A stretch of DNA of 64,000 nucleotides from an uncultured Gammaproteobacteria bacterium (GCA_964509765.1 CAZDYI010000073.1:82-64081); one strand, 5' to 3'; counted from the stretch's first letter, positions 4,216 through 32,844 are shown. A program made the numbers and translations. Notes: a model not told the origin generated them from the letters alone.

Positions 4216-4270
4216 GGCCGATCCTCCTTGGTAAGTCAGTTGCCGCTCAAGATGGCCCTTGCCGCCGGCG

Positions 4271-5840: not shown

Positions 5841-5863
5841 CCAGGCGAGCCGCAGTCGCCTGG
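5841..5863 (-). terminator. Hairpin downstream of the outer-membrane protein gene (possible terminator)
   Basis: CCAGGCGA-GCCGCAG-TCGCCTGG, an 8-bp perfect stem 36 nt after the stop at 5899. No clear U-tract. Confidence 0.3.
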
Positions 5864-5898
5864 CGTCATAACTTGGTTCGGCTAGTTTTCTTCTGCTG

Positions 5899-7067: not shown

Positions 7068-7090
7068 CGAATTGCCCTTCCCCTTCGCTG

Positions 7091-7100
7091 ATTCTAGCCA
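7091..7100 (-). promoter_or_regulatory. Putative -10 element TGGCTAGAAT upstream of ctaG
   Basis: Minus strand reads GCTTGGCTAGAATCAGCG, 24 nt upstream of the ctaG ATG. The same 10-mer occurs at 28078-28087 and 29351-29360. Confidence 0.35.
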
Positions 7101-7160
7101 AGCGGCGCAAGGCTTCGCGCATGCCTGCGCGCAAAGCCAGTGGATAGAATTCCGCCCGCC

Positions 7161-9920
7161 ATGGGCAGCAACGGCGACGCGCTCGCGAAGCAGTACGACC
7201 CCGCCGCGATCGAGCGCGGGATCTACGAGGGCTGGGAGTCCTCGGGGGCCTTCGACTCCACACCGCGCGAGGGCAGGAAGGGATACTGCATCCTGCTTCC
7301 GCCGCCGAACGTCACGGGATCGCTGCACATGGGCCACGCCTTCCAGCACGTGGTGATGGACGCGCTCGTCCGCCACCGGAGGATGTGCGGCGACGACGTG
7401 CTCTGGCAGCCGGGGACCGACCACGCCGGCGTCGGAACCCACATCGTGGTCTCCCGGGCGCTTCGCGGGCAGGGCCTGGACCCCGACGCGATGGGCCGCG
7501 AGGAGTTCCTCGAGCGGGTGCTCGAGTGGAAGGAGGGATCGGCGTCGACTATCGGCCGGCAGATGAGGCGCCTCGGCGACTCGTGCGACTGGAGCCGGGA
7601 GTGCTTCACCCTCGACCCCAAGCTCTCGGCGGTGGTCCGCGACGTGTTCGTCCGGCTCCACGATGACGGCCTGATCTACCGCGGCAAGCGGCTGGTCAAC
7701 TGGGACCCGAAGCTGCTCACCGCGCTTGCCGACCTCGAGGTCGCGGCCGAGGAGGAAAGCGGCGTGCTCTACCACGTGCGCTACCCGTTCGCCGACGGCG
7801 ACGGGACCGACGGGATGGTGATCGCCACCACCCGTCCCGAGACGATCCTCGTAGACGGCGCGCTCGCGGTGGCGCCGGGCGACCCGCGCCACGCGGCCCA
7901 GGTCGGGCGCTTCGTCCGGGTGCCGTGCACGGAGCGGACGATCGAGGTGATCGAGGACGAGCACGTCGACCCTGAGTTCGGCTCAGGCTGCGTGAAGATC
8001 ACCGCTGCGCACGACTTCAACGACTGGGAGGTTGCGATGCGCCACCCGGACAAGAACATCCCAATCATCGAGCTGATGACGCCCGAGGCGGTCCTCAACG
8101 ACAACGCGCCGGAGCGCTACCGGGGGCTCGACCGCTACGCGGCCCGCGAGCGGATCGTCGCCGACCTCGACGGGCAGGGCCTGCTGGTCAAGAAAGAGGA
8201 CCACACCTACATGCTCCCGCGCGGGATACGCTCCGGCGTGGTGGTCGAGCCGATGCTCAGCGACCAGTGGTTCGTCCGCACCGAGCCGCTTGCGAAGCTA
8301 GCCCTCAAGTCGGTCGAGGAGGGCAGGCTCACGTTCGTGCCGGGCAGCTGGCGGTCGGTCTACGAGAACTGGCTCTCCGGGATCAAGGACTGGTGCATCT
8401 CGCGGCAGATCGACTGGGGGCACCGGATCCCGGCCTGGGAGGACGCCGACGGCAACTGCTTCGTGGCCAAGGACGAGGGCGAGGCGAGGGCCAAGGCCGG
8501 CGACGGCCGCGATCTCCGGCAGGTCGACGACGTGCTCGACACCTGGTTCTCGTCGGCGCTGTGGCCTCTTTCGACGCTCGGCTGGCCCGACGGGGGCGAC
8601 GCGCACTTCAAGCGCTACTTCCCGACCTCGGCGCTCGTGACCGGCAACGACATCATCTTCTTCTGGGTCGCGCGGATGGTGATGATGTCGGAGTACCTCG
8701 TCGGCAAGGAGCCGTTCTCCGAGGTGTACATGCACGGCCTGGTGCGCGACCGCAACGGCGAGAAGATGAGCAAGTCGCGCGGCAACGTCCTCGACCCGAT
8801 CGACCTAATCGAGGGGATCGGCCTCGGCGAGCTGCTCGAGAAGCGGGTCACCCCCGACCTCGACGAAAAGCTCGCCGCCGAGATCGAGCGCAACACCCGC
8901 AAGGAGTTCCCCGACGGCATCCCGGCCTTCGGCGCCGACGCCCTGCGGCTTACCTTCGCCTCGCTCGCCGGCCACGGCCGCAACATCAACTTCGACCTGC
9001 GCCGCATCGACGGCCACAGGCGGCTGTGCACCAAGCTGTGGCAGGCCTCGCGCTTCGTGGTCTCGTCCTGCGAGGGCCCCCCCGCCGGGGGCGGCGAGCG
9101 CGGCTTCGCCGAGCGCTGGATCGTCTCGCGCCTGCAGCGCGCCGAGCGCGACGTCGCGGAGCGCTTCGCGGGCTACCGGCTGGACCTGGCGGTCGAGAAG
9201 CTCACCGCGCTCCTGCGCGACGAGTTCTGCGACTGGTACATAGAGGCGTCCAAGGAGCGCCTGGCCTCCGGCGGGGACGCGGCGGCGGGGGCGAAGGCGA
9301 CCCTTGCGGGCGTGCTCGCCGCGATCCTGCGCCTCGCCCACCCGATCGTCCCGTTCATAACCGCCGAGCTGTGGAAGTCAGTCGGCCCGCTGGCGGGCTT
9401 TGAGGGAGAGGACATCATCACCGCGCCGTACCCGGTTTGCGACGAATCGAAGATCGACTCCGCGGCGGAGGGGGACATGGAAAGGTTCGTCGGCCTGGTC
9501 CACGCTGGGCGCAGCCTGCGCGCTAGCCTCGGGATCGACCCGGGCAAGCGGATCCCGGCGCGGCTCGAGGACCCGGAGGGGACGCTCGACGGCTCGGTCG
9601 GGATGCTGCAGAGGCTCGCGCGGCTCGGCGAGGTGGAGTCCGGTGGGATAGGTCCCGACTCGGGCGAGCCGGTCGTCTCGGTCGACGGCATGCGCCTGCA
9701 GCTCCTGCTCGGCGAGGAGGGCGCCGGCTGGCAGGGGCGCCTCGACGGCGAGATCGCCAGGCTCGAGGAGAGCGTTGGAAGGATGCGCGCCAGGCTCGAC
9801 AACGAGTCCTTTGTCGCGAACGCCCCGGCCAAGGTCGTCGAGGAGGCGCGGGAGCGGTGCTCCAGGGAGCAGGGGCGGCTCGACGCCGCCAGGGATCTTG
9901 CCAGGGCCAACGCGCCCTAG
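7161..9920 (+). CDS. valS: Valine--tRNA ligase
   Basis: Class I motifs PPPNVTGSLHMGH and KMSKSRGN, plus a C-terminal coiled-coil. The ORF opens at GTG 7140; ATG 7161 (MGSNGDALAKQYDP) is preferred because TGGATAGAAT at 7141-7150 looks like a -10 box. Confidence 0.95.
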   Translation: MGSNGDALAKQYDPAAIERGIYEGWESSGAFDSTPREGRKGYCILLPPPNVTGSLHMGHAFQHVVMDALVRHRRMCGDDVLWQPGTDHAGVGTHIVVSRALRGQGLDPDAMGREEFLERVLEWKEGSASTIGRQMRRLGDSCDWSRECFTLDPKLSAVVRDVFVRLHDDGLIYRGKRLVNWDPKLLTALADLEVAAEEESGVLYHVRYPFADGDGTDGMVIATTRPETILVDGALAVAPGDPRHAAQVGRFVRVPCTERTIEVIEDEHVDPEFGSGCVKITAAHDFNDWEVAMRHPDKNIPIIELMTPEAVLNDNAPERYRGLDRYAARERIVADLDGQGLLVKKEDHTYMLPRGIRSGVVVEPMLSDQWFVRTEPLAKLALKSVEEGRLTFVPGSWRSVYENWLSGIKDWCISRQIDWGHRIPAWEDADGNCFVAKDEGEARAKAGDGRDLRQVDDVLDTWFSSALWPLSTLGWPDGGDAHFKRYFPTSALVTGNDIIFFWVARMVMMSEYLVGKEPFSEVYMHGLVRDRNGEKMSKSRGNVLDPIDLIEGIGLGELLEKRVTPDLDEKLAAEIERNTRKEFPDGIPAFGADALRLTFASLAGHGRNINFDLRRIDGHRRLCTKLWQASRFVVSSCEGPPAGGGERGFAERWIVSRLQRAERDVAERFAGYRLDLAVEKLTALLRDEFCDWYIEASKERLASGGDAAAGAKATLAGVLAAILRLAHPIVPFITAELWKSVGPLAGFEGEDIITAPYPVCDESKIDSAAEGDMERFVGLVHAGRSLRASLGIDPGKRIPARLEDPEGTLDGSVGMLQRLARLGEVESGGIGPDSGEPVVSVDGMRLQLLLGEEGAGWQGRLDGEIARLEESVGRMRARLDNESFVANAPAKVVEEARERCSREQGRLDAARDLARANAP

Positions 9921-13466: not shown

Positions 13467-14282
13467 ATGGCAGACAAGAAAGAGCCGAAAAACAAGGCCG
13501 GCGCCGAGCAGGATGTGCTCGTCTTCGTCGGTCCCATGAGCCGTGAGCAAGTCCAGAAGGCGCTTGCCCTCGTCAAGGACTGCAAAGCAAGGTCGGCGGG
13601 CCTGCTGTTGGTCTTGGTCACCTTGGGTGGCAGTGCGGACGCTGCGTACAAGCTGGCGAGCACGCTCAGGAAGCTGTACGGGAAGATCACCGTCTTCGTG
13701 CCTCACATGTGCAAGAGCGCTGGCACCCTGGTCTGCCTGGCGGCAGACGAGCTTGTCATGAGCGTTGACGGTGAGCTCGGACCTCTTGACGTGCAGGTTG
13801 TCCAAGACGACAGGACAAAGATGCATTCAGGGTTGGATCAGAGTACCTCCTTTTCTGCCCTGATCTATCACACACGTGACGCCTTCAGCCACTATTTCAG
13901 GTACTGTGTGACGAAGCTAGGCTTGAGCAAGAAATCAGCTTCAGAAATTGCGTCAGATCTGGCTGGTATGACGATGGCTCCGATTTATTCCCAGATCGAC
14001 CCGCGCGTTGTCGGAGAGATAATCAGGGCAATGGAAGTATCCTACAGGTACGGAAACTTGCTTCGCACAATAAATGTGCAACCATGGACAATAAAAACAT
14101 TGGTGGATGCTTTCCCGTCGCATGGTTTTGTCATTGACAGCAAAACAGCTTCAGGACTGTTCAAGAAGCTCCGTGAGCCTGGCGAAATCGAACAACAGCA
14201 GGTGCCGGCAACAGACCTTCTCGAGGTCTTGAAAAACCAGAGAAGTATAATTACATTCAAGCAACAGGAGGCAACCAAATGA
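13467..14282 (+). CDS. Clp-fold serine proteinase, SDH/S49-like family
   Basis: LLVLVTLGGSADAAYK and HMCKSAGTLVCLAADELVMS resemble the ClpP/SppA GG and nucleophile-Ser blocks. Size is about 271 aa from MADKKEPKNK. The track ORF starts at 13437. Confidence 0.7.
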   Translation: MADKKEPKNKAGAEQDVLVFVGPMSREQVQKALALVKDCKARSAGLLLVLVTLGGSADAAYKLASTLRKLYGKITVFVPHMCKSAGTLVCLAADELVMSVDGELGPLDVQVVQDDRTKMHSGLDQSTSFSALIYHTRDAFSHYFRYCVTKLGLSKKSASEIASDLAGMTMAPIYSQIDPRVVGEIIRAMEVSYRYGNLLRTINVQPWTIKTLVDAFPSHGFVIDSKTASGLFKKLREPGEIEQQQVPATDLLEVLKNQRSIITFKQQEATK

Positions 14283-14461
14283 GCAAGAAGTTTGAGTTCT
14301 TCAAAACAAGAAAGGAACTCCTGGAGGAGTTGCAGGAGCACAGGCGGCTATTCCAAGAGGATCTGGACCGCCAGTTGGGGCGCATCCCGGAAGACTTCGT
14401 CGACGACGGAGCAGAGCCGGGCAGGAAGATCCCGCACAATCCCTTCACTGGAGGGAAGTGA
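14279..14461 (+). CDS. Mini-protein A (60 aa), paralogue family T-R-x-E-[LF]..E[LV][HQ]..RR.....[LM][DN]R.LGR
   Basis: Its ATG overlaps the protease stop (ATGA). Strong AGGAGG Shine-Dalgarno 7 nt upstream. The core FFKTRKELLEELQEHRRLFQEDLDRQLGRIPEDF is shared with B-D. Confidence 0.6.
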   Translation: MSKKFEFFKTRKELLEELQEHRRLFQEDLDRQLGRIPEDFVDDGAEPGRKIPHNPFTGGK

Positions 14462-14561
14462 TCGCCAGACGCCTCCTCAGGCGCCTGGTGCGAACCGCTG
14501 TTGCCCCCGTAGCTGGCATCTCAAGCTGGAGTCGGGAAAGGGCTTGAAGCAGGCGGACAAC

Positions 14562-14783
14562 ATGAAGAAGGTTGAAATGCACGACAGGAAGATCCCTTTC
14601 TTGTACCAAACCAGGGAAGAGTTCTGGGCGGAGTTGCACAAGAACAGAAGGCAATACCGGAAAGAGATGGACCGCTTGCTGGGACGCAGGCCAGGCGAGC
14701 CTCTTCTGTACAGGTACATGTTGGGCAGGAAGCGCCCAGAGGGACCTGTTGACTCTGGCGATCAACAGCCAGACGAGTCCTGA
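14562..14783 (+). CDS. Mini-protein B (73 aa), same paralogue family
   Basis: MKKVEMHDRKIPFLYQTREEFWAELHKNRRQYRKEMDRLLGRRPGEP... This is an internal ATG of the 163-aa track ORF, chosen because the shared core starts just after it. Confidence 0.55.
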   Translation: MKKVEMHDRKIPFLYQTREEFWAELHKNRRQYRKEMDRLLGRRPGEPLLYRYMLGRKRPEGPVDSGDQQPDES

Positions 14784-14993
14784 GTGACCAGGTCCAAGGG
14801 GTCGGTCAGCTTGAAACTGACATTACCTGAGACCAGCGAAGGGTTTGCTGAGTACCTGCAGGAATGCAGGAGGCTCAACGATGAGGACCTTGAGCGCGTG
14901 CTGGGTAAAAGGCCCGGCGAGAGCTGGTACAGGAGGGAGATCAAACAACTCGCAGAGGACAAGCGTGCGAGCGAAGAAAAAAAGGACAGGTGA
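14784..14993 (+). CDS. Mini-protein C (69 aa), same paralogue family
   Basis: GTG directly abuts the TGA of B in the same frame. Core TLPETSEGFAEYLQECRRLNDEDLERVLGKRPGES. Confidence 0.5.
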   Translation: MTRSKGSVSLKLTLPETSEGFAEYLQECRRLNDEDLERVLGKRPGESWYRREIKQLAEDKRASEEKKDR

Positions 14994-15059
14994 CGGCAGC
15001 CGGCCGGCGCCGCTCTTGCGATTCATGTGCTGTGGCGTGGCTGCTGAGGATGAGCAGGT

Positions 15060-15233
15060 ATGAACAACAAAATTAGAAAGGTCGTCTACCAGACCAGGGA
15101 AGAGTTCTGGGCTGAGGTGCATGAGCACAGGAGGCGGCACAGGGCAGAGATGAACCGCTTGCTAGGGCGCAAGTTGGGCGGAGCTCTTGCCCGCTACAGG
15201 GCTCGCAGGAACAGGACGGGGAACATCATCTGA
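15060..15233 (+). CDS. Mini-protein D (57 aa), same paralogue family
   Basis: Not in the ORF track (below 60 aa). Hand translation: MNNKIRKVVYQTREEFWAEVHEHRRRHRAEMNRLLGRKLGGALARYRARRNRTGNII. GAGGA lies 9 nt upstream. Confidence 0.55.
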   Translation: MNNKIRKVVYQTREEFWAEVHEHRRRHRAEMNRLLGRKLGGALARYRARRNRTGNII

Positions 15234-15426
15234 TCTTGGCAAGAGATGACCAAGCACACCTTGAGCAGCAAGTGGAGCGTGCTGGCTTGGATAATTTCGG
15301 AACTGTTCGAGTCAGAACGTCCTCTTTCAACAGATGAGGCAAGCCGGATTTTGACATCAACTTAGCGGAGGAGTTGACATCAGGCCGTGCTAGAACTACT
15401 TTCCTACCAAGCGAGGCAGAGCAGAA

Positions 15427-15609
15427 ATGGTAAAGCCATTTTCAAGAAACAATGAGCGGATAGATCAGTCGCACATACGGCGGCTGAGGAAGCTCTACAG
15501 TGGAGTCGGAGGGCGGGCGCCCAAGCCGATTCCCAGCGATGAGGAGCGCCGCGCCTGCAAGGAAGTGATCAGCCGGTATTACTCCGGACTGCGCAAGGCA
15601 GGGCTGTGA
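15427..15609 (+). CDS. Hypothetical small basic protein (60 aa)
   Basis: Last ORF of the lower-G+C cassette: MVKPFSRNNERIDQSHIRRLRKLYSG... No family recognised and only a weak RBS. Confidence 0.35.
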   Translation: MVKPFSRNNERIDQSHIRRLRKLYSGVGGRAPKPIPSDEERRACKEVISRYYSGLRKAGL

Positions 15610-15693
15610 TCGCTGCCCTCCGCTGAGCTCTGGTTCAGGAAACACCCTGAATCAGCGTGTCTCAGCCTTTGATGCAGGCAGGCTCTTGCGGAT

Positions 15694-17079
15694 TCAAATT
15701 TGTTGCGGGCCTAGGACAGCATCCGCTGCCGCCCGAACCTTTTCGACGTGGTCGCCATGGCAGAACACAGAGTCCCTGATCAGGTGGTCGGACACTTTCG
15801 TCCCGCGGTCCTTCAGGTCCATCAGCTCGAGAAGCTTCAGGGTGTTGTGTGATTCATCCTCGACCAGCATGTTCTTGGCCTCTTTGTTGTCCGTTGCCGG
15901 CGCCAGGTCCACCGCCACAAGGTGGCGGGGCACCTTCGCTTTTTCTGCGATTTGGTCCCGAAGCTTTTCGGTGTCAGAACCGTCGACATCTCCGGCCGCT
16001 CCCTTGTTCCGATCAAACCGCGCCGCAACCTTGAACAGCCTGCGGTTCCGCATGTCGCTGAATATCGACGCCGCGCTGTCGCTGCCGCGAACCGCTCCGG
16101 GCACAAGCGCCATCTCGTCGTCCAGCGCCAGGAAGCTTGCGGGAGACGTGATCTCGTTCCCGTTGATAGTCGCTCCGTCCTCAACGGCGCGCCCGAATGC
16201 GTTGATGCACATCACCTTGCAGGCCCGTGACACGTCGTGGTGGTAGACGACGGTGTTCATGTGGAGCTTGTGGTTTACGAGCTGCGCCAGGGCCGCGATC
16301 GCCCGCCTGCCGCCGACCAGCCTCATCTCGCCGTCCACGTCCCTTACCTTCATCAGGCGGTAGATCCTCCCGGCGTCGACGTGTATCGGTATCCCGCAGT
16401 GCATCCCGTCGCGGCTGAGGTAGTCCAGCTTGTCCGCGTCGAACGGGCCGTGAACGATCTCCCCCAGGTACTTCATGTCGCTAGGCAGCCTTCCTTGGAT
16501 GGCCCGGGCGATGAAGTCGCAGCCAAGCTCGGATCCGTTCAACGACCCGTCCTTGAAATGTCCGTTCACCTCATCGATGAACTTGCGGAACGCCTCGCTG
16601 CGGACGATCTCCGCCGACAGGTCCTCGGCGCTCGTCCCTCTCGGCTCCATGTTCCTGAAGAAGAACTCGGAGTTGTGCGAGAACGGGCCGTGGCCGGCGT
16701 CGTGGCAGATCGCGGCCATCCGCAGGTTCAGCCTCTGCCCGTCCGTCACCCGCACCTCGCCGGGCTTGTTCAGGCCGTTGCACATCAGCTCGACGAGGAG
16801 CACGACTCCCATCGTGTGCTCAAAGCGCGTGTGCACTGCGCCGGGGAAGACGAGGTGCGCGCCGCCGAGCTGCCTGATCCGCCGCAGCCGCTGCAAAAGC
16901 GGCGAGTTGATCAGCGCGATCTCGTGCGGGTAGACCTCGATGGTTCCCCAGACCGAGTCGTGCAGGTACCTTGTCTTGGCGCGGCCCTTGGGTAGCCCGG
17001 CGGGCAGGAGCTCCCGCAGCAGGCCGTTGATCTCCCGCCCGAGGCCCGCCCGCCCGGCGGGCGCGCCGGCCTCAGCCAC
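15694..17079 (-). CDS. HD-domain phosphohydrolase, SAMHD1/EF1143-like dNTP triphosphohydrolase family
   Basis: RFEHTMGV, ICHDAGHGPFSH and ADKLDYLSRD blocks. 461 aa. Its start overlaps the upstream gene by 8 nt. Confidence 0.8.
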   Translation of the reverse strand: MAEAGAPAGRAGLGREINGLLRELLPAGLPKGRAKTRYLHDSVWGTIEVYPHEIALINSPLLQRLRRIRQLGGAHLVFPGAVHTRFEHTMGVVLLVELMCNGLNKPGEVRVTDGQRLNLRMAAICHDAGHGPFSHNSEFFFRNMEPRGTSAEDLSAEIVRSEAFRKFIDEVNGHFKDGSLNGSELGCDFIARAIQGRLPSDMKYLGEIVHGPFDADKLDYLSRDGMHCGIPIHVDAGRIYRLMKVRDVDGEMRLVGGRRAIAALAQLVNHKLHMNTVVYHHDVSRACKVMCINAFGRAVEDGATINGNEITSPASFLALDDEMALVPGAVRGSDSAASIFSDMRNRRLFKVAARFDRNKGAAGDVDGSDTEKLRDQIAEKAKVPRHLVAVDLAPATDNKEAKNMLVEDESHNTLKLLELMDLKDRGTKVSDHLIRDSVFCHGDHVEKVRAAADAVLGPQQI

Positions 17080-24023: not shown

Positions 24024-25394
24024 ATGGCTGACCCGGCGGCCCTCCGCGAGGCCCTCTCCGGCGCGCTGCCCGAAGGGCGGCTCGCCTTCGACGAGGGCGC
24101 CCGCCGCGCGTACTCAACCGACAACAGCAGGCTGAGCTTCGTCCCGGACTGCGTCGCCTGGCCCGCGAGCGAGGAGGAGGTGGCGAAGGTCGTCAAGGCC
24201 GCCAACCTGACGAAGACTCCGGTCTACGTGCGCGGCAGGGGGACCGCGACGACCGGCTCGTCGCTCGCCGAGGGCGGCGGGATGGTCCTGTCGACCGAGA
24301 GGATGGACGGCATAGTCAGGATCGACGAGGCGAGCAGGACCGCGACCGTCGGCCCCGGGGTGATAACAGGCGACCTCGCCAAGGAGCTCGAGGGGCGCGG
24401 TCTGTTCTGGCCGCCCGACCCCTCGAGCGCGCCGTACTGCTCGGTCGGCGGCAACATAGCGACCGCGGCCGCGGGCCCGCGCGGGGTGAGGTACGGCGGC
24501 GTGCGCGAGAACGTCCTCGCGGTGCGCGCGGTGTGCGGCGACGGAACGGTGGTCAAGAGCGGAGCGAGGGTGCACAAGTCGTCGGTCGGCTACGACATCG
24601 CAAGGCTGCTCGTCGGGTCCGAGGGGACTCTCGCCGTCGTGACCGAGGCGACCCTGCGGCTGTTCCCGATTCCGAGGGCCGCGGCGCAGGCGGCGGCGTC
24701 CTTCCAGTCGTCCGCCGACGCGCTCAACGCGGTCGGCAGGATCATGCGCTCGCGGGAAAGCCCGTCCGCGGTCGAGTTCATCGACGAGGGCTGCATCGAG
24801 CTCGTCGGCGACGAAGGCCTGACCGGCAAGGCCGGGGCGCTGTTGCTGCTCGAGGCAGAGGGCGAGGACGCCGAGGGCGCGTCGCGCGCGATGGAGAAGG
24901 TCCACAAGTCGCTCGAGGGCGGGCCGAAGGTGACGCTCCTCGCGCAGGAGGAGGGCGGGAAGGCGTGGGAGGCAAGGAAGGTGCTCTCGCAGAGGCTGCG
25001 CGACGCAGGCGCGGTGAAGGTCAACGAGGATGTCGCGGTCCCGGTCCCGAAGCTCGAGGAGCTCGTGGACCTCGCGAGGAAGTCCGCGGCCGAGGCCGGG
25101 CTGCGCAACCTCAACTTCGGACATGCGGGACTGGGCAACCTCCACATAAACCTTCTGTTCGACGACCCCGCCGACAGGGACAAGGCGACGGAGGCCGTGC
25201 GGCGGATAATGGAGTTTGTCGTACTTTCCGGCGGGAGCATATCCGGCGAGCACGGGATCGGGATCGCCAAGCGTCAGTTCCTGTCGGTGCAGGTCGACGA
25301 GCAGAGCCTAGCGCTCCAGGAGAGGATCAAGAAGGCGTTCGACCCCAACAACATACTGCGGCCGCTTCCAATTGAAAACGAATCCAATGGTTAA
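24024..25394 (+). CDS. FAD-linked oxidase (GlcD/D-lactate dehydrogenase family)
   Basis: FAD-binding PCMH-type N-terminus (VYVRGRGTATTGSSL), ...GHAGLGNLHINLL... and a SGEHGIG C-terminal block. Confidence 0.85.
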   Translation: MADPAALREALSGALPEGRLAFDEGARRAYSTDNSRLSFVPDCVAWPASEEEVAKVVKAANLTKTPVYVRGRGTATTGSSLAEGGGMVLSTERMDGIVRIDEASRTATVGPGVITGDLAKELEGRGLFWPPDPSSAPYCSVGGNIATAAAGPRGVRYGGVRENVLAVRAVCGDGTVVKSGARVHKSSVGYDIARLLVGSEGTLAVVTEATLRLFPIPRAAAQAAASFQSSADALNAVGRIMRSRESPSAVEFIDEGCIELVGDEGLTGKAGALLLLEAEGEDAEGASRAMEKVHKSLEGGPKVTLLAQEEGGKAWEARKVLSQRLRDAGAVKVNEDVAVPVPKLEELVDLARKSAAEAGLRNLNFGHAGLGNLHINLLFDDPADRDKATEAVRRIMEFVVLSGGSISGEHGIGIAKRQFLSVQVDEQSLALQERIKKAFDPNNILRPLPIENESNG

Positions 25395-25591
25395 GTTATG
25401 CGCTGGTATTACTGCAGTCATTGTGCTTCATGATGTGAAAATTGAGCAGGCAAACCGAAATAGTTCATGCTCTGACATTGCATCGACGTCGCCAAGGTCA
25501 GAAAGCACATGGTCGAGTCATTGAAATTGATATTGGGATACAATTCACTCAGGCAAAAGGCAGAATTACCTGACGCCTGAGATTTGTGAAC

Positions 25592-26751
25592 ATGTTATTC
25601 CCCCCCCCCTTCTGAAAATTCAGAAGAGGAGTCAGGGTTTAGCTCCTCGGAGCTGCGCTTCAAATTAAATGGCAACGCCATCGACTATTTCCACATCTTT
25701 GTGGTGAACGTCCTCCTAACCGTAGTCACGTTTGGGGTGTACTCGGGTTTGGGCGAAGGTTCGCAACCGGCGCTACTTTTTCGGCAACACAGTTCTTGAA
25801 GGCCAAACATTCGAGTTTGACGCCCGTCCTGTTGCGATTCTGATCTCCCGGCTGATCATTGTCGCGTTGCTGTTCTTCGCTTATCTCAGCGATGAGTTTC
25901 TCGGATTGATCTGGAACGAATTTGGATTGATTTCCACGCTCCTCCTCCTGCTTTTTCCCTTCGCCGTAGTCCGTGGGCGAGCGTTCAACGCACGCCACAC
26001 CCTGCTCGGCACGGTGCGATTTAGTTACATTTCGATCTACGGACCATCGATCTTTCTGTTCTGTGCTTACTTCTTGCCGCCATTGGCGTTGGCAGTAGTA
26101 TTGCCTGCTTCCACAAGCGGCGGTGAGATGCAAAGACTTGTGGATAGCATCGGCGCAATGATGGTACTGATTTAGCTGTCGGCATTTCCGACGTACCACT
26201 ATTTCAGGCACCGCATCTTGGTCAGCCAGCTCAAGTATGGGCGGTTAGGCTTTGAATTCATGTGCAGGACGAGAACCTACTACTATCATGCACTCATTGC
26301 ATTCCTGTTTAGCCTAATCTTCTTTCCGATCATGTCCTTCGGTGTGTTAGTCGAAACCGAGTCGGGCGTCCCTACAGACGAGGTCGGTTTGATCGGTATA
26401 GTCAGTATGTCGAGCTATTTTCTGATCCTTATCGGCGTCTATCGTGCAAGGATCATACGACAGTTCTACTCCTCCATCAGGCTCAGTGACGGCATCGCGG
26501 TCAAGTGTTCTATCTCCGCTAGTCGATACTTCTTCGCCTACGCTACGGTCAACTTCTTCGCCATAATTCTCTCGCTCGGGTTGCTGATTCCTTGGGTCCG
26601 GGTGCGGACCTGGAGATACATCTCGGAAAACTTGGTGATACTACAGCCCATGCCTGGCTCTGTCCTGGGCGGTCCGGAAGAAAAGGTCACGCCTCTCGGA
26701 GAGGAATTCGTGGATCTCAACAGTCTCGATTTTGACGTCGGGATAATCTGA
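25592..26751 (+). pseudogene. DUF898/YjgN-family membrane protein, degraded copy (C10 tract after ATG, +1 frameshift, in-frame TAG)
   Basis: Homology to the two intact paralogues runs through three pieces. First, frame 0 from about 25599 (..ELRFKLNGNAIDYFHIFVVNVLLTVVTFGVYS). Second, frame +1 from about 25745 (WAKVRNRRYFFGN...), with an extra base in the GGGTTTGGG run. Third, a TAG at 26173-26175 where the paralogues have Leu, after which the 177-aa track ORF continues. Confidence 0.75.
25600..25609 (+). repeat. Homopolymer tract C10 three codons after a candidate ATG
   Basis: Counted directly. ATG TTA TTC C9 TTC TGA terminates as it stands. 9 or 12 C would put the ATG at 25592 in frame with the DUF898 homology. 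Confidence 0.95.
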
Positions 26752-26811
26752 TTCCATGCGTATCAGTTGCAATCCAAGTCATCCTAGTGTCATCGGCAGT
26801 CTTTGTGTCAC

Positions 26812-27201
26812 CTAGTAGTAGATTGTCCGAGTACCGCCCTCCAACGTGATTCTTATTCGCCTTTTTGGCGGAGCACATACGACGATGAAGGCTTCCGCTT
26901 CCAAACAGCTGGATTCCTCCTTGATCAGTTTTTGCATCACGTGTTTCCTCAGACTTGGAACCACTCCGTCCTCGAACCTGATAACGCATGGGTGAGGTAG
27001 GTTGTCTCTGAAGACCAGAGTCACGAAGTCCTTGTCCATGGTGATGAGCACACGGTTCAGTCTAGCCGCCAGCGCGAGGATCTGTGCGTCCTCAGCCTTC
27101 TCAGAGAGAGCATCTTTGGAGAGCAACACGTCATGTCCCTGTTCCGCCAAGGCACGCACGACGACGCCCGACATCGCGCAGACGTCGATGAGGAACTTCA
27201 A
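26812..27201 (-). CDS. DUF5615-family PIN-like putative toxin
   Basis: MKFLIDVC...GHDVLL...ILALAARLNRVLITMDKDFVTLVF...LPHPCVIRF matches the DUF5615 pattern. 4-nt overlap with the upstream DUF433 gene. Confidence 0.7.
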   Translation of the reverse strand: MKFLIDVCAMSGVVVRALAEQGHDVLLSKDALSEKAEDAQILALAARLNRVLITMDKDFVTLVFRDNLPHPCVIRFEDGVVPSLRKHVMQKLIKEESSCLEAEAFIVVCAPPKRRIRITLEGGTRTIYY

Positions 27202-27497
27202 CCAGACTCTCGGGTGCTGGCAGCGCTCCGAATCTCCTGTGTCGCCATTTGTTGCTTTGCGAACAACAGGCAGGCTTGGATGTCTTCCCTCTCAAGGATA
27301 TCATTATCCTCAAGCAGTTCATCCACGCTCATTCCCGCGGACAACTGACCCAAGACATGCTCCACGGCAAAGCGCATGCCGCGGATGATCGGCTTCCCCC
27401 CGAAGATCCCGGGGTTTCTTGTGATCCGCTGCAGCAGTTCTTGTTCTTGCTTCGTGCTTAGTTCAGTGGGCTTTGTGTCGGTTGCGACCGTGCTCAT
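27198..27497 (-). CDS. DUF433-family putative antitoxin
   Basis: ITRNPGIFGGKPIIRGMRFAVEHVLGQLSAGMSVDELLEDNDILEREDIQACLLFA is the canonical DUF433 core. Confidence 0.8.
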   Translation of the reverse strand: MSTVATDTKPTELSTKQEQELLQRITRNPGIFGGKPIIRGMRFAVEHVLGQLSAGMSVDELLEDNDILEREDIQACLLFAKQQMATQEIRSAASTRESG

Positions 27498-27521
27498 TGG
27501 CTATCCCTGGCGTTCAATGTC

Positions 27522-27530
27522 ATTATACCA
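27522..27530 (-). promoter_or_regulatory. Putative extended -10 promoter TGGTATAAT for the DUF433/DUF5615 operon
   Basis: Minus strand reads TGGTATAAT (TGnTATAAT consensus), 24 nt upstream of the ATG at 27497. Confidence 0.45.
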
Positions 27531-27637
27531 ATTCAGATGACTATTGCATTTGTTCTGAGCATCCTGTTATCGTAGTGAATTCAGCGGTGGCCGAGGTCGG
27601 CTCCATCCAGCTAAACAAATTATCACGGGGGAATCGG

Positions 27638-27904
27638 TCATTTGAGATGGGGGCTGGCAGAAACGTACTCCTGCACGTTGTCGTAGGCTACGCTTCCGTA
27701 GGCATACACGAGGCATGCGCGGATGTCCTCGGACTCCATGGCAGGGTTGTCGGCGAGGATGTCCTCTGCCGTTCTGCCTGCAACAAGCATGTCCAGGACG
27801 TTTTCGACCAATACCGCCGTGTCACGGACGGCTGGCTTGTCCGAATGCTTGCCTAGATTGACAGTTATGCGTTCAAGCAGCTCGCGGTGGTCGTCGAGGT
27901 CCAT
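27638..27904 (-). CDS. DUF433-family protein (orphan, no cognate toxin gene)
   Basis: From MDLDDHRELLERITVNLGKHSDKPAVRDTAVLVENVLDMLVAGRTAEDILADNPAMESEDIRACLVYA. The upstream 56 codons of the track ORF look non-coding. Confidence 0.65.
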   Translation of the reverse strand: MDLDDHRELLERITVNLGKHSDKPAVRDTAVLVENVLDMLVAGRTAEDILADNPAMESEDIRACLVYAYGSVAYDNVQEYVSASPHLK

Positions 27905-28081
27905 TCTCTGCTTCCGGCCCAATGTTGTTGTCAGTCGAATTGTAAGGGAACCGCCGCAAACGATTCCTTGCCCATTCCGGCAGGGACAGCAGAATGTTGC
28001 ACCTCGTTTCCGAATCAGTGTTCGAGACATGAGCCGCTCAGTTGTCCTCCATGCCGAGCGTTCCTGCGGCAATCCGTTGGC

Positions 28082-28087
28082 TAGAAT
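28082..28087 (+). promoter_or_regulatory. Putative -10 box within TTGGCTAGAATTCAACCG upstream of DUF898 copy 2
   Basis: The motif is shared with 29351-29366 (upstream of copy 3) and 7091-7100 (minus strand, ctaG). Confidence 0.35.
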
Positions 28088-28128
28088 TCAACCGTCGGGT
28101 CGGCATGGCAACCGTCAGACACCTCAAG

Positions 28129-29331
28129 ATGGATTCTTCCGACTCCCTGCCGACATCGCCGGCCGCGGCAGCGGAGGCGGGAGAGGGCGCCAGGGAGATG
28201 CGCTTCAGGTTCGACGGAACCACCCTCGACTACTACGGCGTCTTCCTGGTGAACGTCCTGCTGACGGTCGTCACGCTCGGGATCTACTCTGCGTGGGCGA
28301 AGGTCCGCAACAGGCGCTTCTTCTACGGCAACACCCTGCTCGACGGCCACGCCTTCGAGTTCGACGCCCGCCCGGCGTCCATCCTGATCTCCCGGCTGAT
28401 CATCGTCGCCGTGCTGGTCGCGGCATCGTTCAGCGACGAGATACTCGGCTGGGTCTGGGGCGGGGTCGGGCTGTTCTCGTCGCTGATCCTCCTGCTGTTT
28501 CCCTTCGCCGTCGTGCGCGGCCGAGCGTTCAACGCCCGCCACACCCTGCACCGCACGGTGCGGTTCCGCTACCTGTCTGTCTACTGGCCGTCGTACCTGC
28601 TGTTCTTCGCCTACTTCCTGCCGGCGCTCGCCCTGTTCGCCGCGATGTCCGTCACGAGCGACGGCGGCATTCGGGAGCCTGCTGACTGGGTCGTCCTCGT
28701 GGCGACGTTCGTCTGGCTCTACCTGCTCGCGGCCTTTCCTGCGTACCACCTCTGGCGACACCGCATCATGGTCAACCAGCTCAAGTTCGGCAAGCTCGGA
28801 TGCGAGTACACGGCGAGGATGAAGACCTACTACTACCACGCGCTGATCGCGTTCCTGCTCAACCTTATTGCCGTGGTCGTGATCGGAGCCGCCGCCTTCG
28901 CGGCTGTGTCAGGCATCACGAGCAGCGTCGACCCGGCGGACCCCGATTCGTTCGGACTGGTCTTCATCATCATTTTCTTCTCGATCGTTTTCATGATCTT
29001 CGCCGGCTACGGCATCTACCGCTCGCGGATCATCCCGGTCTTCTACTCCTCGGTCAGGCTCAGCGACGGAAGCGCGCTCAAGTGCACCGTCACCGCGAGG
29101 CGCTACTTCTTCGCCTACGCGACGGTCAACTTCCTTGCCATCGTCCTCTCCTTCGGGCTGCTGTTGCCGTGGGTCCGCGTGCGGACCTGGCGCTACATCT
29201 CGGAGAACCTGAGGGTCGTCCTGTCGCCCGAGACCGGAGCCGTCCTCGCCGGGCCGGAAGAGGGGATCACTCCGCTCGCCGAGGAGCTTGCCGACGTCTC
29301 CGGATTCGACTTCGACTTCGGGATGATCTGA
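28129..29331 (+). CDS. DUF898/YjgN-family polytopic membrane protein (copy 2)
   Basis: LTVVTLGIYSAWAKVRNRRFFYGN, LLFPFAVVRGRAFNARHTL, RHRIMVNQLKFGKL and PWVRVRTWRYI blocks, with multiple TM segments. The start is uncertain (ATG 28129, 28105 or 28042). Confidence 0.85.
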   Translation: MDSSDSLPTSPAAAAEAGEGAREMRFRFDGTTLDYYGVFLVNVLLTVVTLGIYSAWAKVRNRRFFYGNTLLDGHAFEFDARPASILISRLIIVAVLVAASFSDEILGWVWGGVGLFSSLILLLFPFAVVRGRAFNARHTLHRTVRFRYLSVYWPSYLLFFAYFLPALALFAAMSVTSDGGIREPADWVVLVATFVWLYLLAAFPAYHLWRHRIMVNQLKFGKLGCEYTARMKTYYYHALIAFLLNLIAVVVIGAAAFAAVSGITSSVDPADPDSFGLVFIIIFFSIVFMIFAGYGIYRSRIIPVFYSSVRLSDGSALKCTVTARRYFFAYATVNFLAIVLSFGLLLPWVRVRTWRYISENLRVVLSPETGAVLAGPEEGITPLAEELADVSGFDFDFGMI

Positions 29332-29354
29332 GCCCGCGGGCGGCCCGGCGTGGC

Positions 29355-29360
29355 TAGAAT
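29355..29360 (+). promoter_or_regulatory. Putative -10 box within TGGCTAGAATTTCAATCGG upstream of DUF898 copy 3
   Basis: It sits in the 74-nt spacer between copies 2 and 3 and is conserved with the copy-2 upstream element. Confidence 0.35.
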
Positions 29361-29405
29361 TTCAATCGGCGGCCGCGGCGCGCGGCACGCAGCAGACACC
29401 GCGAC

Positions 29406-30602
29406 ATGAGAATCGAGCGCCCCGAGCCGCAGGCGAGGCCCGCCACATACTACGAGTCCATGCACGGGCTGTCGAGCCTGCGCTTCAGCTTCGTCGGGAC
29501 GACCTGGGGCTACTACGGGGTTTACATCACGAACGTCATCCTGACGGTCATCACGCTCGGGATCTACTCGGCCTGGGCGAAGATCCGCAACAAGCGCTTC
29601 TTCTACGGCAACAGCCTGCTCAAGGGACACGCCTTCGAGTTCGACGCAAACCCCGTCGCGATCCTGCTCTCGCGGATCATCATCGTCGCGGTCCTGGCCG
29701 CCGCCGCGTTCAGCGACGAGTTCCTCAACCTCGTCTGGCTCGGCTTCGGCCTGCTGTCGTCCATGCTGTTCCTCCTCTTCCCGTTCGCCATCGTCCGCGG
29801 CCGCGCCTTCAACGCCCGCCACACCCTCCACCGCTCGGTCCGCTTCAGCTACGACAGGGTTTACTGGCCGTCGTACCTGGTGTTCTTCGCCTACTACCTG
29901 CCGGCCTTCGGCCTGTTCCTCGCGCTCGCGGCCATACAGCAGGGACTCCAGGACGGGGAGTTGGCGCTCTCGCCGGGTCTTTACGCCGCCGCGGGCGCGA
30001 CCGCGGCGTACCTGCTGGCCGCGTTTCCCGCCTACCACTGCTTCCGGCACAGGATCATGGTCAACCAGCTTCGCTTCGGCAAGCTCGCCTGCTCGTACGG
30101 CGCAAGCGTCGGCGCATACTACCGGCACGCCGGCATGTCGGTCCTGCTGGGGATCGTGCTGGTGTTCGCCGCTTTCGTGGTCGCGTTCCTGTTCCAGCTG
30201 TTTGCCGGCGGGGCGATCGAGGAGGGCAAGCTCACCGCTTTCGTGGTCGCCGCGGTGATCGTCGCCCCGCTCCTGGTAATCGGCATCTACCGCTCGCGGG
30301 TTCTGCCGATGTTCTACTCCTCGGTCAGCTTCAGCGACGGCAGCTCGCTGCAGAGCTCGGCCACGGCCGCGGGCTACTTCTTCGGCTACGCGCTGGTCAA
30401 CGCCGTTGCGATCGTGGTGTCGGCCGGGCTCCTCCTGCCGTGGGTGCGGGTGCGCACCTGGCGCTACGTGGCAGACACCCTGACGCTGAGCCTCTCTCGC
30501 GAGACCGGCGTGGTCCTCGCAGGCACCTCCAGGAACGTCAGCCCGCTCGCCGAGGAGCTCGCCGACGTCTCCGACTTCGACATCGACTTCGGCGTGATCT
30601 GA
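29406..30602 (+). CDS. DUF898/YjgN-family polytopic membrane protein (copy 3)
   Basis: 398 aa with the same conserved blocks as copy 2 (LTVITLGIYSAWAKIRNKRFFYGN, LLFPFAIVRGRAFNARHTL, PWVRVRTWRYV) and the same acidic C-terminal tail. Confidence 0.85.
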   Translation: MRIERPEPQARPATYYESMHGLSSLRFSFVGTTWGYYGVYITNVILTVITLGIYSAWAKIRNKRFFYGNSLLKGHAFEFDANPVAILLSRIIIVAVLAAAAFSDEFLNLVWLGFGLLSSMLFLLFPFAIVRGRAFNARHTLHRSVRFSYDRVYWPSYLVFFAYYLPAFGLFLALAAIQQGLQDGELALSPGLYAAAGATAAYLLAAFPAYHCFRHRIMVNQLRFGKLACSYGASVGAYYRHAGMSVLLGIVLVFAAFVVAFLFQLFAGGAIEEGKLTAFVVAAVIVAPLLVIGIYRSRVLPMFYSSVSFSDGSSLQSSATAAGYFFGYALVNAVAIVVSAGLLLPWVRVRTWRYVADTLTLSLSRETGVVLAGTSRNVSPLAEELADVSDFDIDFGVI

Positions 30603-30632
30603 GCCGCAGCCCTTGGTAACATAACAGGCGAG

Positions 30633-31691
30633 ATGGCAGGGCAGATTCAGGCCGCGGGCCCGCTCGACGGCATCTGGCACGCCGGCAACTCCACCGACGC
30701 CGACGAGGTCCGGGTCGAGCGCGACGGCAGCGAGGTCGTCGTCAGCTTCGCGGACGGGCGCGCCGAGCGCCGCGACCTCTCCTCGGCGACCTACTCGTCG
30801 CGGATGAAGGGCGTGCCGCTGAGCGTGTCGTTCGCCGACGGCGCGGTGCTGGTCGTCCCCGGCGGCGACGATGCGCTGCGGCTCTCGCGCGGGATGTCCG
30901 ACTGGCTCGCCTTGCTCGAGAGCCGCCTGCTCATCGCCCTGCCGGTGCTGCTCGCCGCGGCCGCCGCGGTGATCGTCTTCCTCATCGAGGTTGTGGTCCC
31001 GTCGGTCGCGCGCAACGTCACCCCGCTGCTATCGGTCGAGCAGGTCAACGCAGTCGGCGCCCGGGTCTTCGGCGCGATCCAGAACTTCTGGGACATCGAG
31101 CTCAACAGCCAGGAGGAGGAGCACCTCGAGGCGACAGAGAACCTGCGCCGGATCGGCCACGAGATAGCGGAGGTCGCAGGCGGCGGCTACAACTACGAGT
31201 TCTACATCGAGTCGAGCGGCAAGATCGGCATGAACGCCTTCGCGATCCCCGACGGCAGCATCATCATGACCTTCGAGCTCTACGAGCACCTCGACGAGGA
31301 CGAGGTCGCCGCGGTGCTCGCCCACGAGGTCGCGCACGTGGCGGAGCGCCACGGGATGGAGGGGCTCGTGCGCGGGTCGGCGTGGTTCGTCATCTCGGCT
31401 CTGCTGTTCGGCGGCGGCGACTCGTTCCTTACCTACCTGCCGGGCCTGGCCGAGTTCGCCTACTCGCGGGAGGCCGAGGCCGAGGCCGACTGCGTCGCCA
31501 CCGACCTGCTCGCCGCGGTCGGTCGGCCGCCGCTTTCGATGGCGTCGGCGCTGCGCGCGCTCGGCGGGGCCTACGGCCTCGACGACGAGGACGAGTCGAG
31601 CGGGATCTGGGACCTGCTGCGGTCGCACCCGGAGATCGGCGACCGCGTGGTGATGGCGAGCCAGTGCGCGGGCCAGGAGGGCGACATCTGA
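30633..31691 (+). CDS. M48-family zinc metallopeptidase with N-terminal soluble domain and TM segment
   Basis: HEVAHVAERH zinc motif with a downstream E (EAEAEAD), and the TM stretch LLIALPVLLAAAAAVIVFLIEVVV. Starts 30 nt after DUF898 copy 3. Confidence 0.85.
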   Translation: MAGQIQAAGPLDGIWHAGNSTDADEVRVERDGSEVVVSFADGRAERRDLSSATYSSRMKGVPLSVSFADGAVLVVPGGDDALRLSRGMSDWLALLESRLLIALPVLLAAAAAVIVFLIEVVVPSVARNVTPLLSVEQVNAVGARVFGAIQNFWDIELNSQEEEHLEATENLRRIGHEIAEVAGGGYNYEFYIESSGKIGMNAFAIPDGSIIMTFELYEHLDEDEVAAVLAHEVAHVAERHGMEGLVRGSAWFVISALLFGGGDSFLTYLPGLAEFAYSREAEAEADCVATDLLAAVGRPPLSMASALRALGGAYGLDDEDESSGIWDLLRSHPEIGDRVVMASQCAGQEGDI

Positions 31692-31721
31692 CGCCGGCGC
31701 TGAAATAAAATCCCCGCCCCC

Positions 31722-32054
31722 ATGCCGATGTATGAGTACCAGTGCGCCGCCTGCGGCCACGGCGACACGCTGCTCGAGAAGGTCGGCAGCTCGTCGACCA
31801 AGAAGTGCCCGGAGTGCGGCAAGCTCCGCGCCTTCAAGCGCCAGCTCTCGGCGCCGTCGTTCCACCTCAAGGGCACCGGCTGGTACGCAACCGACTTCCG
31901 CGACAGCGGCAAGAAGAAGTCGGATCGCGACTCCAAGCCCGACGACGCCAAGGCCGAGCCTGCGAAGGACGGCGACAAGAAGGCCGACAAGGCCGAGGCC
32001 AAGCCCAAGGCCGAAAAGAAGGCAGAGAAGAGCAAGGCCGCGGCCGAGGCCTGA
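31722..32054 (+). CDS. FmdB-family zinc-ribbon protein with Lys/Ala/Glu-rich tail
   Basis: MPMYEYQCAACGH...KKCPECG...SAPSFHLKGTGWYATDF is the CxxC..CxxC FmdB signature. Confidence 0.8.
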   Translation: MPMYEYQCAACGHGDTLLEKVGSSSTKKCPECGKLRAFKRQLSAPSFHLKGTGWYATDFRDSGKKKSDRDSKPDDAKAEPAKDGDKKADKAEAKPKAEKKAEKSKAAAEA

Positions 32055-32058
32055 CTCG

Positions 32059-32844
32059 GTCCTCCGGGCGCTTATCGCGTCCGCCGCGCTCCTTGCGTCA
32101 TTCGCCGCGGCGCCCGCCGCGGAGACCCTGCGGGTGGCGGTGGCGAGCACGGTGGACAACTCCGGGCTGGCGGCGCGCCTTGCCGAGGGATACTCGAGGG
32201 CCTGCGGCTGCGAGGTGCGAATGATCGCCGCCGGCTCGACCCGGGCTCTTGCAATCCTCGCCGCGGGCGACGCTCCCGTCGCCATCACGCACGCGCCGGA
32301 GATCGAGATGCGATTCGTGGAGGGCGCGCCCGGCCGCAGCCGCGCCGAGTTCATGGCGAACGAGTTTGTCCTCGCCGGCCCCGCTGACGACCCGGCGCAG
32401 GCAAGGGGCAAGGGCCTCGCGGGAGCATTCGCCGCGATCGCCGCGGCCGGCGCGCCGTTTGTGTCCAGGGGCGACGGCTCGGGGACGAACCTCGCGGAGG
32501 AAAGGCTGTGGCGCGAGGCTGTCGGAGCGGTTCCGCTCGGGGAGAAGTGGTACAGGAGGGCAGGCGTGCAGATGGCCGCGGCGCTCCAGGTCGCCGACCA
32601 GACCGGCGCGTACACCCTCAGCGACTCGGGAACGCTCGCAACGTTGTCCGAAAGCGGCGTGCTCGGCTTCGAGCTGATCGCCCGCGACGCCCCTCCGCTT
32701 CGCAACGTCTACAGCGTGGTCGTCTCGGACTCTGCGGGCGAGGTCGGCAGGGGCTTCGCGCGCTGGCTTCGGTCCGACGAGGCGGCCGTGCTGATCGGGG
32801 CGGCGGAGGCGAGCGGCAAGCCTATGTTCAGGGCCCTGAGGTGA
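32059..32844 (+). CDS. Periplasmic substrate-binding protein, tungstate/TupA-like; start codon unresolved
   Basis: Signal-peptide-like LRALIASAALLASFAAAPAAE, then LRVAVASTVDNSGL (compare the TupA TTSTxDSGL block). There is no ATG, GTG or TTG in frame between 31732 and 32134, so the 5' end is approximate. Confidence 0.6.
   Translation, partial: VLRALIASAALLASFAAAPAAETLRVAVASTVDNSGLAARLAEGYSRACGCEVRMIAAGSTRALAILAAGDAPVAITHAPEIEMRFVEGAPGRSRAEFMANEFVLAGPADDPAQARGKGLAGAFAAIAAAGAPFVSRGDGSGTNLAEERLWREAVGAVPLGEKWYRRAGVQMAAALQVADQTGAYTLSDSGTLATLSESGVLGFELIARDAPPLRNVYSVVVSDSAGEVGRGFARWLRSDEAAVLIGAAEASGKPMFRALR

Follow-up and report, generated by a model that had tools for sequence, protein, structure and literature searches.

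A DUF898/YjgN membrane protein and a membrane-anchored M48 protease: a candidate two-subunit inner-membrane complex encoded in an uncultured gammaproteobacterium

The M48 proteases BepA, HtpX, Oma1 and Ste24 are central to membrane-protein quality control, and the targeting and activation of enzymes of this kind are only now being worked out, for BepA. In two other membrane systems, FtsH-HflKC and SpoIVFB-BofA-SpoIVFA, it is the partners that govern protease activity or substrate access. BepA is kept inactive by a plug whose HPx4R histidine provides a fourth ligand to the zinc, and this motif is kept throughout the family PF01435 (PMC7950410). A 2026 preprint reports that R252 and D205 of BepA hold this plug in place, and that a hydrophobic alpha6 lid inserts into the membrane, releasing the plug (bioRxiv 10.64898/2026.07.01.735768). 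Here we describe a 64,000-nt stretch of DNA (the window) from an uncultured Gammaproteobacteria bacterium (GCA_964509765.1, CAZDYI010000073.1:82-64081), in which a cluster at positions 25592-31691 brings genes of the DUF898/YjgN membrane-protein family together with a gene for an M48 protease.

The original prediction for this cluster was of three tandem DUF898 paralogues followed by an M48 metallopeptidase, a candidate membrane module. The listing of open reading frames (ORFs) and Pfam scans of the window bore out the peptidase, which begins 30 nt past the end of copy 3 and has the HEVAHVAERH motif (residues 231-240), the extra N-terminal domain and the transmembrane (TM) helix that had been ascribed to it. 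All three DUF898 copies were found on one strand, but only two of them are intact, copy 1 being a pseudogene to which we return below. The intact genes are as follows.

28129..29331, plus strand: copy 2, an intact DUF898 gene of 400 aa (PF05987 match at E 5.8e-72)
29406..30602, plus strand: copy 3, an intact DUF898 gene of 398 aa (Pfam E 9e-64), directly 5' of the protease gene
30633..31691, plus strand: the M48 zinc metalloprotease gene, 352 aa, comprising a DUF7092 domain, one TM helix and an M48 catalytic domain

Both DUF898 proteins match PF05987 over profile positions 2-336 of 336 (243 bits for copy 2 and 216 bits for copy 3, with a gathering cut-off of 28), and the protease matches Peptidase_M48 (PF01435) at E 6.5e-20 and 72.2 bits versus a cut-off of 20.3. 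There are no further DUF898 or M48 genes elsewhere in the 64-kb window. On balance, it is probable that DUF898 and the single-pass M48 protein form a two-subunit inner-membrane protease complex, with DUF898 as a non-catalytic partner that was amplified in this lineage and of which copy 1 is dead.

A gene pair found across bacteria and its natural fusions

The adjacency of DUF898 and M48 that the original prediction mentioned for other genomes proved to be real, and it held from both directions of approach, the two genes being neighbours in every assessable locus (79/79 and 77/77). A DUF898-anchored scan, based on a DUF898 alignment and limited to one genome per species, provided 80 loci with 26-33% identity to copy 3, and an M48-anchored scan, in which an M48 alignment was run against metagenome contigs, likewise provided 80 loci, each sample consisting of the 80 top-ranking loci among some 600 pattern hits, with more than 570 confirmed loci per scan. 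In 79 of the 80 DUF898-anchored loci the next gene in the downstream direction was a same-strand M48 homologue, the contig of the 80th ending 111 nt past DUF898, and a DUF898 ORF was situated directly upstream in 77 of the 80 M48-anchored loci, the other three being cut by contig ends. The taxa in the DUF898-anchored sample span the alpha-, beta-, gamma- and deltaproteobacteria, Nitrospiraceae, Planctomycetota, Holophagales and Bdellovibrionales; the pair is present in Rhizobium, Ensifer, Marinobacter, Pseudoalteromonas and Geotalea, and probably also in Yersinia-type enterobacteria. Removal of pairs that were more than 85% identical left 140 of 157, and in 31 loci the stop and start codons of the two genes overlap, by 4 or 1 nt.

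When all flanking ORFs were clustered, no third conserved neighbour emerged, any one flanking gene being common to at most 16 of 156 loci. As the pair persists while the genes around it change, shared synteny does not explain the pairing, and the pair is a self-contained two-gene unit in changing surroundings. Departures from the usual arrangement were seen on the protease side, e.g., two M48 genes in tandem (6966-8009 and 8083-9192) after the DUF898 gene in a Thiohalomonadaceae metagenome-assembled genome (L008). In addition, the M48 ORFs of three metagenome loci (L102, L143 and L165) are ~750 aa long and run ~400 residues past the usual end, an extension that is either a further domain at the C-terminus or a run-on of the reading frame.

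Gene fusion is classic evidence for physical association, and a profile search identified a protein of 626 aa, P0121, in which DUF898 and M48 occur in one chain. A search with P0121 against 1.84 billion representatives matched 9080 relatives of its DUF898 or M48 half at E <= 0.001 and, followed by Pfam, produced seven DUF898-M48 single-chain representatives at 50% clustering. In five of these (P0121, P0145, P0146, P0170 and P0294) a basic linker of 25-70 residues joins DUF898 to the TM helix and M48 domain, and these five have neither the acidic C-terminal tail of DUF898, described below, nor DUF7092; the tail motif is gone from all seven fusions. With this architecture, the C-terminus of DUF898 and the N-side of the protease TM helix must face the same compartment. 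Taken with the co-occurrence of the separate genes, the natural fusions lend good support to a functional DUF898-M48 unit, in keeping with the membrane module that had been predicted.

Individual chains have peculiarities of their own. The linker of P0287 resembles out-of-frame sequence, and this fusion may be an artefact, while P0294 (710 aa) has ARELLH instead of HExxH, from which its protease domain may be catalytically dead. Another protein, P0154 (592 aa), contains DUF7092, the TM helix and two M48 domains in one chain. Other DUF898 architectures (P0222, 752 aa; P0187, 939 aa) consist of one with an N-terminal TPR and a DUF898 that keeps its acidic tail, and of another chain with several DUF898 units in a row.

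The DUF898 protein, the protease and the acidic tail

The AlphaFold2 (AF2) model of copy 3 has a predicted local distance difference test score (pLDDT) of 82.9 and a predicted template modelling score (pTM) of 0.82, and in it five helical hairpins alternate with beta-hairpins. The helices of hairpins 1 and 5 have only 14-18 residues and are therefore too short to span a bilayer. As modelled, the protein would have six long helices and two short hairpins that look re-entrant and are very highly conserved, together with a platform of beta-hairpins that is basic and predicted to be cytoplasmic. Conservation within the family peaks in the two short hairpins, at the TLGIY turn (3.7 bits) and the hairpin-5 turn (3.2 bits), and is lowest at the far tips of hairpins 3 and 4 (0.15-1.0 bits). 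The loops on the beta-hairpin side have a mean of 8.8 lysines and arginines (K+R) versus 0.5 on the opposite side, a bias that points to a cytoplasmic location of both DUF898 termini. Some homologues (P0015 and P0024) have an insertion of ~60 residues at the tip of hairpin 3 (alignment columns ~201-300) with two cysteines each, compatible with a disulfide in a periplasmic loop.

Relatives of DUF898 in the Protein Data Bank (PDB) were found neither by fold (the best Foldseek E was 4.2) nor by a profile search of PDB sequences. A search of the literature on the function of DUF898/YjgN, COG4269 or DUF7092 found nothing. An apparent functional lead for DUF898, the urate oxidase PuuD, was discarded as a misprint: PMC4562309 prints DUF989 14 times and 'DUF898' once, in the section on PuuD domain organisation, and the misprint could mislead text-mining for DUF898 function.

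These features of the model raise the alternative that DUF898 is a transporter or channel with a processing protease, i.e., that the conserved hairpins move or sense a small molecule or peptide, and that the M48 enzyme processes the cargo or gates the channel. In its favour are the standing of the two short hairpins as the most conserved parts of the protein, the fold without a solved relative, and the hairpin helices too short for the bilayer, an architecture that would be typical of channels and transporters. However, no similarity of DUF898 to any transporter family was found, its periplasmic loops are its least conserved parts, and the clustering of flanking ORFs brought to light no conserved cargo, precursor-peptide or regulator gene nearby. 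We consider this alternative distinctly unlikely.

The protease has the following parts, all on the plus strand.

30663..30887, plus strand: DUF7092 domain (residues ~11-85), PH-like, with seven strands and a C-terminal helix
30927..31001, plus strand: single TM helix (residues ~99-123), within a 43-residue helix (90-132), from hydropathy and the model
31323..31337, plus strand: HExxH zinc-binding/catalytic motif (H231, E232 and H235), invariant in 68/68 partnered M48 homologues
31476..31490, plus strand: third zinc ligand E282 with A285 and D286 (ExxAD), invariant
31626..31646, plus strand: HPx4R autoinhibitory plug motif (H332, P333 and R338), invariant in the 68 homologues and present in 154/155 partnered M48s

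D286 of the window protein matches BepA D205 by its spacing (E201+4), and the segment equivalent to the BepA lid is hydrophobic across the family, with a mean best 15-mer hydropathy of 1.80. As all catalytic residues and the HPx4R plug are kept, the protease is probably latent until activated; on these motifs, we predict an enzyme that is active but latent, on the membrane surface. The AF2 model of the M48 protein has a pLDDT of 82.8. Three named M48 proteases were tried as identities for the window protein and rejected. For BepA the score was 35 bits versus a cut-off of 570 (NCBIfam NF052400), and the protein has no Pfam TPR and no hydrophobic N-terminus; for LoiP it was 31.5 bits versus 365 (NCBIfam NF052399); and for HtpX the NCBIfam equivalogs gave 16-27 bits versus cut-offs of 245-422, and the protein has a single strong TM segment.

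The match of the window protein to DUF7092 (PF23368) is weak, at 27.7 bits versus a cut-off of 24.5 over residues 11-80, and the domain was matched in 60 of 68 partnered M48s at E <= 0.001. In a Foldseek search its model matched domains of the PH, PTB and talin F3 types (probability ~1, E 0.06-0.16), among them PTB and talin F3 structures that have a peptide tail bound. Regarding the topology of the protease, the K+R content of the flanks of its TM helix over 68 homologues was 2.44 on the N side versus 1.19 on the C side, favouring an N-in orientation in 47 sequences and the reverse in 7. The M48 protein has no N-terminal hydrophobic, signal-like segment that might serve as a signal peptide; the catalytic part is free of cysteine in 129 of 157 proteins, and DUF7092 contains cysteine in 88 of 157. 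Based on the positive-inside rule, the missing signal peptide, the architecture of the fusions and these cysteine statistics, we infer that the DUF898 tail and DUF7092 are cytoplasmic and that the M48 active site is periplasmic.

The tail in question is the extreme C-terminus of the DUF898 proteins, which in the two intact copies reads as follows.

29269..29328, plus strand: copy 2 acidic tail, ...PLAEELADVSGFDFDFGMI-COOH (from alignments and a family-wide tail list)
30540..30599, plus strand: copy 3 acidic tail, ...PLAEELADVSDFDIDFGVI-COOH (disordered in the model)

A three-way alignment confirmed that all three copies have the acidic end in common, and it also contained every one of the sequence blocks that had been quoted as shared, with small deviations in copy 3. 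Conservation of the tail reaches far beyond the source genome: the last ~15 residues conform to GEExxDxFDxDxG[LFI]-COOH in ~160 partnered DUF898 proteins from all sampled taxa, including an enterobacterial pair that is located between aroG and gpmA and a short, 319-aa form of DUF898. At 2.5 bits per column over 157 orthologues, the tail is conserved to the level of the membrane core. In the model of copy 3, residues 376-398 have a pLDDT below 50. Escherichia coli YjgN, whose gene is solo, ends ...RGVMPSLPFL and has no tail motif. The window locus itself has what we use to define an M48-coupled subfamily, an M48 gene directly downstream on the same strand and the acidic C-terminal motif.

From the linkage and the tail, a protease-substrate or protease-regulator relationship had been proposed, and of the two it is the partner or regulator version that fits better. 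Under the substrate version, DUF898 would be a regulated substrate of the M48 enzyme, with the C-terminal tail as its recognition or cleavage site. The tight gene linkage and the conservation of the extreme C-terminus are as it would have them, the model of copy 3 leaves the tail unstructured and exposed, and Ste24-type M48 enzymes do process C-terminal motifs. It is disfavoured by the predicted topology, in which a cytoplasmic tail faces away from a periplasmic active site, and on which the tail would more probably serve for docking than for cleavage. It is also disfavoured by the seven fusion clusters, in which the enzyme is permanently joined to its supposed substrate and the cleavage motif is lost, and by the nearest structural relatives of the catalytic domain, which are periplasmic BepA-like M48s. 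In view of this we regard DUF898 as a substrate of its neighbour as very unlikely.

If DUF898 and the protease do form a two-subunit complex, then DUF898 would be a non-catalytic scaffold, regulator or substrate selector. Its free C-terminal tail would dock on the cytoplasmic DUF7092 domain, whose PH-like fold makes it the natural candidate for a tail receptor, with TM-TM contacts adding hold, and DUF898 would thereby control the place or time at which the plug leaves the periplasmic active site. Amplified DUF898 copies would be alternative partners of one protease. A more far-reaching version can be imagined, and we hold it to be unlikely, in which the pair would be a widespread transmembrane protease machine that has escaped recognition: a sensor or selector with re-entrant hairpins would hold a latent, plug-inhibited periplasmic M48 enzyme through docking of the tail on the PH-like domain, coupling cytoplasmic or intramembrane events to unplugging, and the selector would have been diversified by amplification.

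The DUF898 copies of the window and their surroundings

The remaining features at the locus are the pseudogene, the DNA in which it resides and a gene 3' of the protease.

25395-28128: low-GC variable island (GC 0.43-0.57 versus ~0.70 around it), between an FAD-linked oxidase gene and copy 2
25611..26751, plus strand: copy 1, a DUF898 pseudogene (three-frame translation and repaired alignment), with the acidic tail still encoded at its 3' end
26812-27497 and 27638-28072, minus strand: a DUF5615 gene (PIN-like, 129 aa) paired with a DUF433 gene (99 aa), and an orphan DUF433 gene besides
31722-32054, plus strand: FmdB-type zinc-ribbon gene (CxxC...CxxC; TIGR02605 E 9e-16; K/A-rich tail), 3' of the M48 gene

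The tandem arrangement that had been predicted holds for copies 2 and 3, but copy 1 is split from copy 2 by 1.4 kb containing three minus-strand genes. Copy 1 had been called degraded, and damaged it is, but the damage makes it an outright pseudogene: it has a frameshift at 25746-25749, between ...GVYS (which ends at 25745) and WAKVRN (which starts at 25750), an in-frame TAG at 26173-26175, and a start that is out of frame, as the sole ATG upstream (25593) sits in another frame behind a run of ten C residues (C10) at 25597-25606. Coding similarity becomes recognisable from near 25611, the DUF898 profile matches are split over three frame segments, and Pfam DUF898 recognises two ORF fragments at 84 and 78 bits. 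One C more or two fewer in the C10 run would restore the frame with the 5' part of copy 1, and the run could be a former slipped-strand switch or mere decay.

The three copies share 58% identity between copies 1 and 2, 57% between copies 2 and 3 and 47% between copies 1 and 3 in the three-way alignment. The GC content of copy 1 is 0.51 versus 0.64 for copy 2 and 0.66 for copy 3, and by codon position it is 0.49/0.38/0.66 in copy 1, 0.58/0.44/0.91 in copy 2 and 0.60/0.45/0.94 in copy 3. Copy 1 has two disabling lesions in 1.14 kb and a ratio of nonsynonymous to synonymous differences (pN/pS) of 0.43 relative to copy 2. It is missing at the orthologous position in a relative, L084, whose flanking genes are ~90% identical and in which the FAD-oxidase gene is followed by other alleles of the toxin-antitoxin genes and then by orthologues of copies 2 and 3. 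That copy 1 might be a decayed local duplicate was rejected on these grounds, i.e., its two lesions only, its lower GC at all codon positions, its pN/pS and its absence from L084. Copy 1 is a compositionally foreign, dead copy and no working member of the cluster; it was probably acquired horizontally, and its features fit a gene that had been evolving under selection in a relative of lower GC content until a recent inactivation.

In the island itself, the DUF5615 and DUF433 genes overlap by 4 nt and fit a type II toxin-antitoxin module. Their alleles in L084 are diverged, with ~68% DNA identity versus ~90% for the flanking genes, and the DUF5615 gene there encodes 76 aa. The blastn homology between the window and L084 resumes exactly at the ATG of copy 2 (28129), and with the right-hand edge of the island at this point, copy 2 must have its promoter within the variable DNA. 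A promoter and terminator scan of 25300-32400 produced a site count that was not above that of shuffled sequences in this high-GC genome. Lower-GC stretches were also noted elsewhere in the window, at 1-6000, 14001-16000 and 62001-64000 (0.56-0.62 versus an average of ~0.70), and these may be acquired segments. None of the PADLOC-DB anti-phage defence models matched copy 2, copy 3, the M48 protein or the zinc-ribbon protein.

The paralogue phylogeny that had been put forward as a check was built as a neighbour-joining tree with bootstrap, in which the window copies and those of a more distant relative, L001, were included. The three window copies form one clade (bootstrap 87%) and the three intact L001 copies form their own (97%), and copy 1 branches deeply as sister to the clade of copy 2 (92%). 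The separate clades imply that amplification was independent in the two lineages, or else that the copies have been homogenised within each. The DUF898 gene is single in all 156 other loci, multiple copies being peculiar to the clade of the window. That DUF898 was amplified, with two intact copies here and three in L001, and that the protease gene stayed single suggests alternative partners sharing one protease. What is specific to the window is thus the lineage-specific amplification of a partner gene and one dead xenologous copy, a modest local story.

The FmdB-type zinc-ribbon gene is kept at its place in the clade of the window (L001-L003 and L084) but is not conserved among the other 156 loci; in L168 the position is taken by another kind of zinc-ribbon gene (Zn_ribbon_2). 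Synteny within this clade is wider still, with the FAD oxidase upstream and the zinc-ribbon, ABC transporter and ParA-like genes downstream. This wider synteny is what would recommend an inherited gene order devoid of functional coupling, with the copies as a local gene family, and we find that explanation hardly credible, given a pair that persists across phyla as all its flanking genes change, in both directions of anchoring, with frequent stop/start overlap and repeated fusion into one chain.

The proposed two-subunit complex weighed and compared with known systems

The two-subunit complex that we prefer must also be set against a number of observations that weigh against it. Both locus samples are the top 80 of ~600 matches and hence stand for the M48-coupled subfamily and not for PF05987 as a whole; in E. 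coli, yjgN is solo, between yjgM and valS, and has no M48 neighbour. Presence of the tail coincides with a separate M48 partner, in a comparison that involves one solo DUF898 (E. coli YjgN). The mutual information between the tail and DUF7092 (APC-corrected, 140 non-redundant pairs) was not above that of the TM/stalk or catalytic-domain controls, in a set of few sequences and low tail entropy. The DUF7092 domain of the window protein is divergent, the consensus residues R63, E74, D77 and D82 being replaced. Two of the fusions, P0205 and P0287, keep DUF7092 though the tail is gone, and so DUF7092 may have another role. The topology is an inference from sequence features and not a measurement, and the searchable literature has no experiment on any member of the family.

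Each component falls into a known Pfam family, and the clan of the protease is well known; with its obligate partner, its tail and a predicted cytoplasmic PH-like domain, the system is nonetheless undescribed among membrane proteases. DUF898/YjgN is a large bacterial membrane-protein family, and its phylum-spanning, obligate pairing with an M48 protease that is probably latent offers a testable context for either family. Specific entry points to experiment are provided by the fusions, by the docking-type tail and by the PH-like domain.

Of the described systems, FtsH-HflKC and SpoIVFB-BofA-SpoIVFA offer an analogy of logic, in that a membrane metalloprotease is set by co-encoded non-catalytic membrane proteins. 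They differ in belonging to the AAA+/M41 and S2P/M50 families and in the unrelated folds of their partners, and no homology to either system was detected. E. coli YjgN, the namesake of its family, shares with the window copies the Pfam family, a similar length and the N-terminal TLGIY...W motif, but unlike them it is solo and its C-terminus has no acidic tail motif.

On the protease side, HtpX is likewise an M48 zinc protease anchored in the inner membrane, and by analogy a role in quality control is plausible for the window protease. The active site of HtpX is cytoplasmic and the protein has multiple TM segments, unlike the window protease, which has one TM helix and a predicted periplasmic active site; HtpX is not known to have a dedicated partner gene. 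The closest solved relative of the catalytic domain is Q74D82 of Geobacter sulfurreducens (PDB 3C37), with a Foldseek E of 1e-6, a TM-score of 0.64 on the target and a profile E of 1e-37, a structural-genomics entry of the catalytic domain only, which lacks DUF7092, the TM helix and a partner. The resemblance to BepA (YfgC), a periplasmic quality-control protease of E. coli, extends from the catalytic fold (Foldseek E 2.6e-4; profile E 3e-23) to HExxH, the Glu ligand, the HPx4R plug with its partner Asp, and a hydrophobic segment between HExxH and the Glu, at the position of the membrane-inserting alpha6 lid. Unlike BepA, the window protease has no TPR domain and no signal peptide, and instead has a one-TM anchor in the inner membrane and what appears to be a cytoplasmic PH-like domain. 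Its partner is encoded next door, whereas that of BepA is the BAM complex, and the analogy suggests that, like BepA, the window protease probably works docked on a membrane-protein partner.

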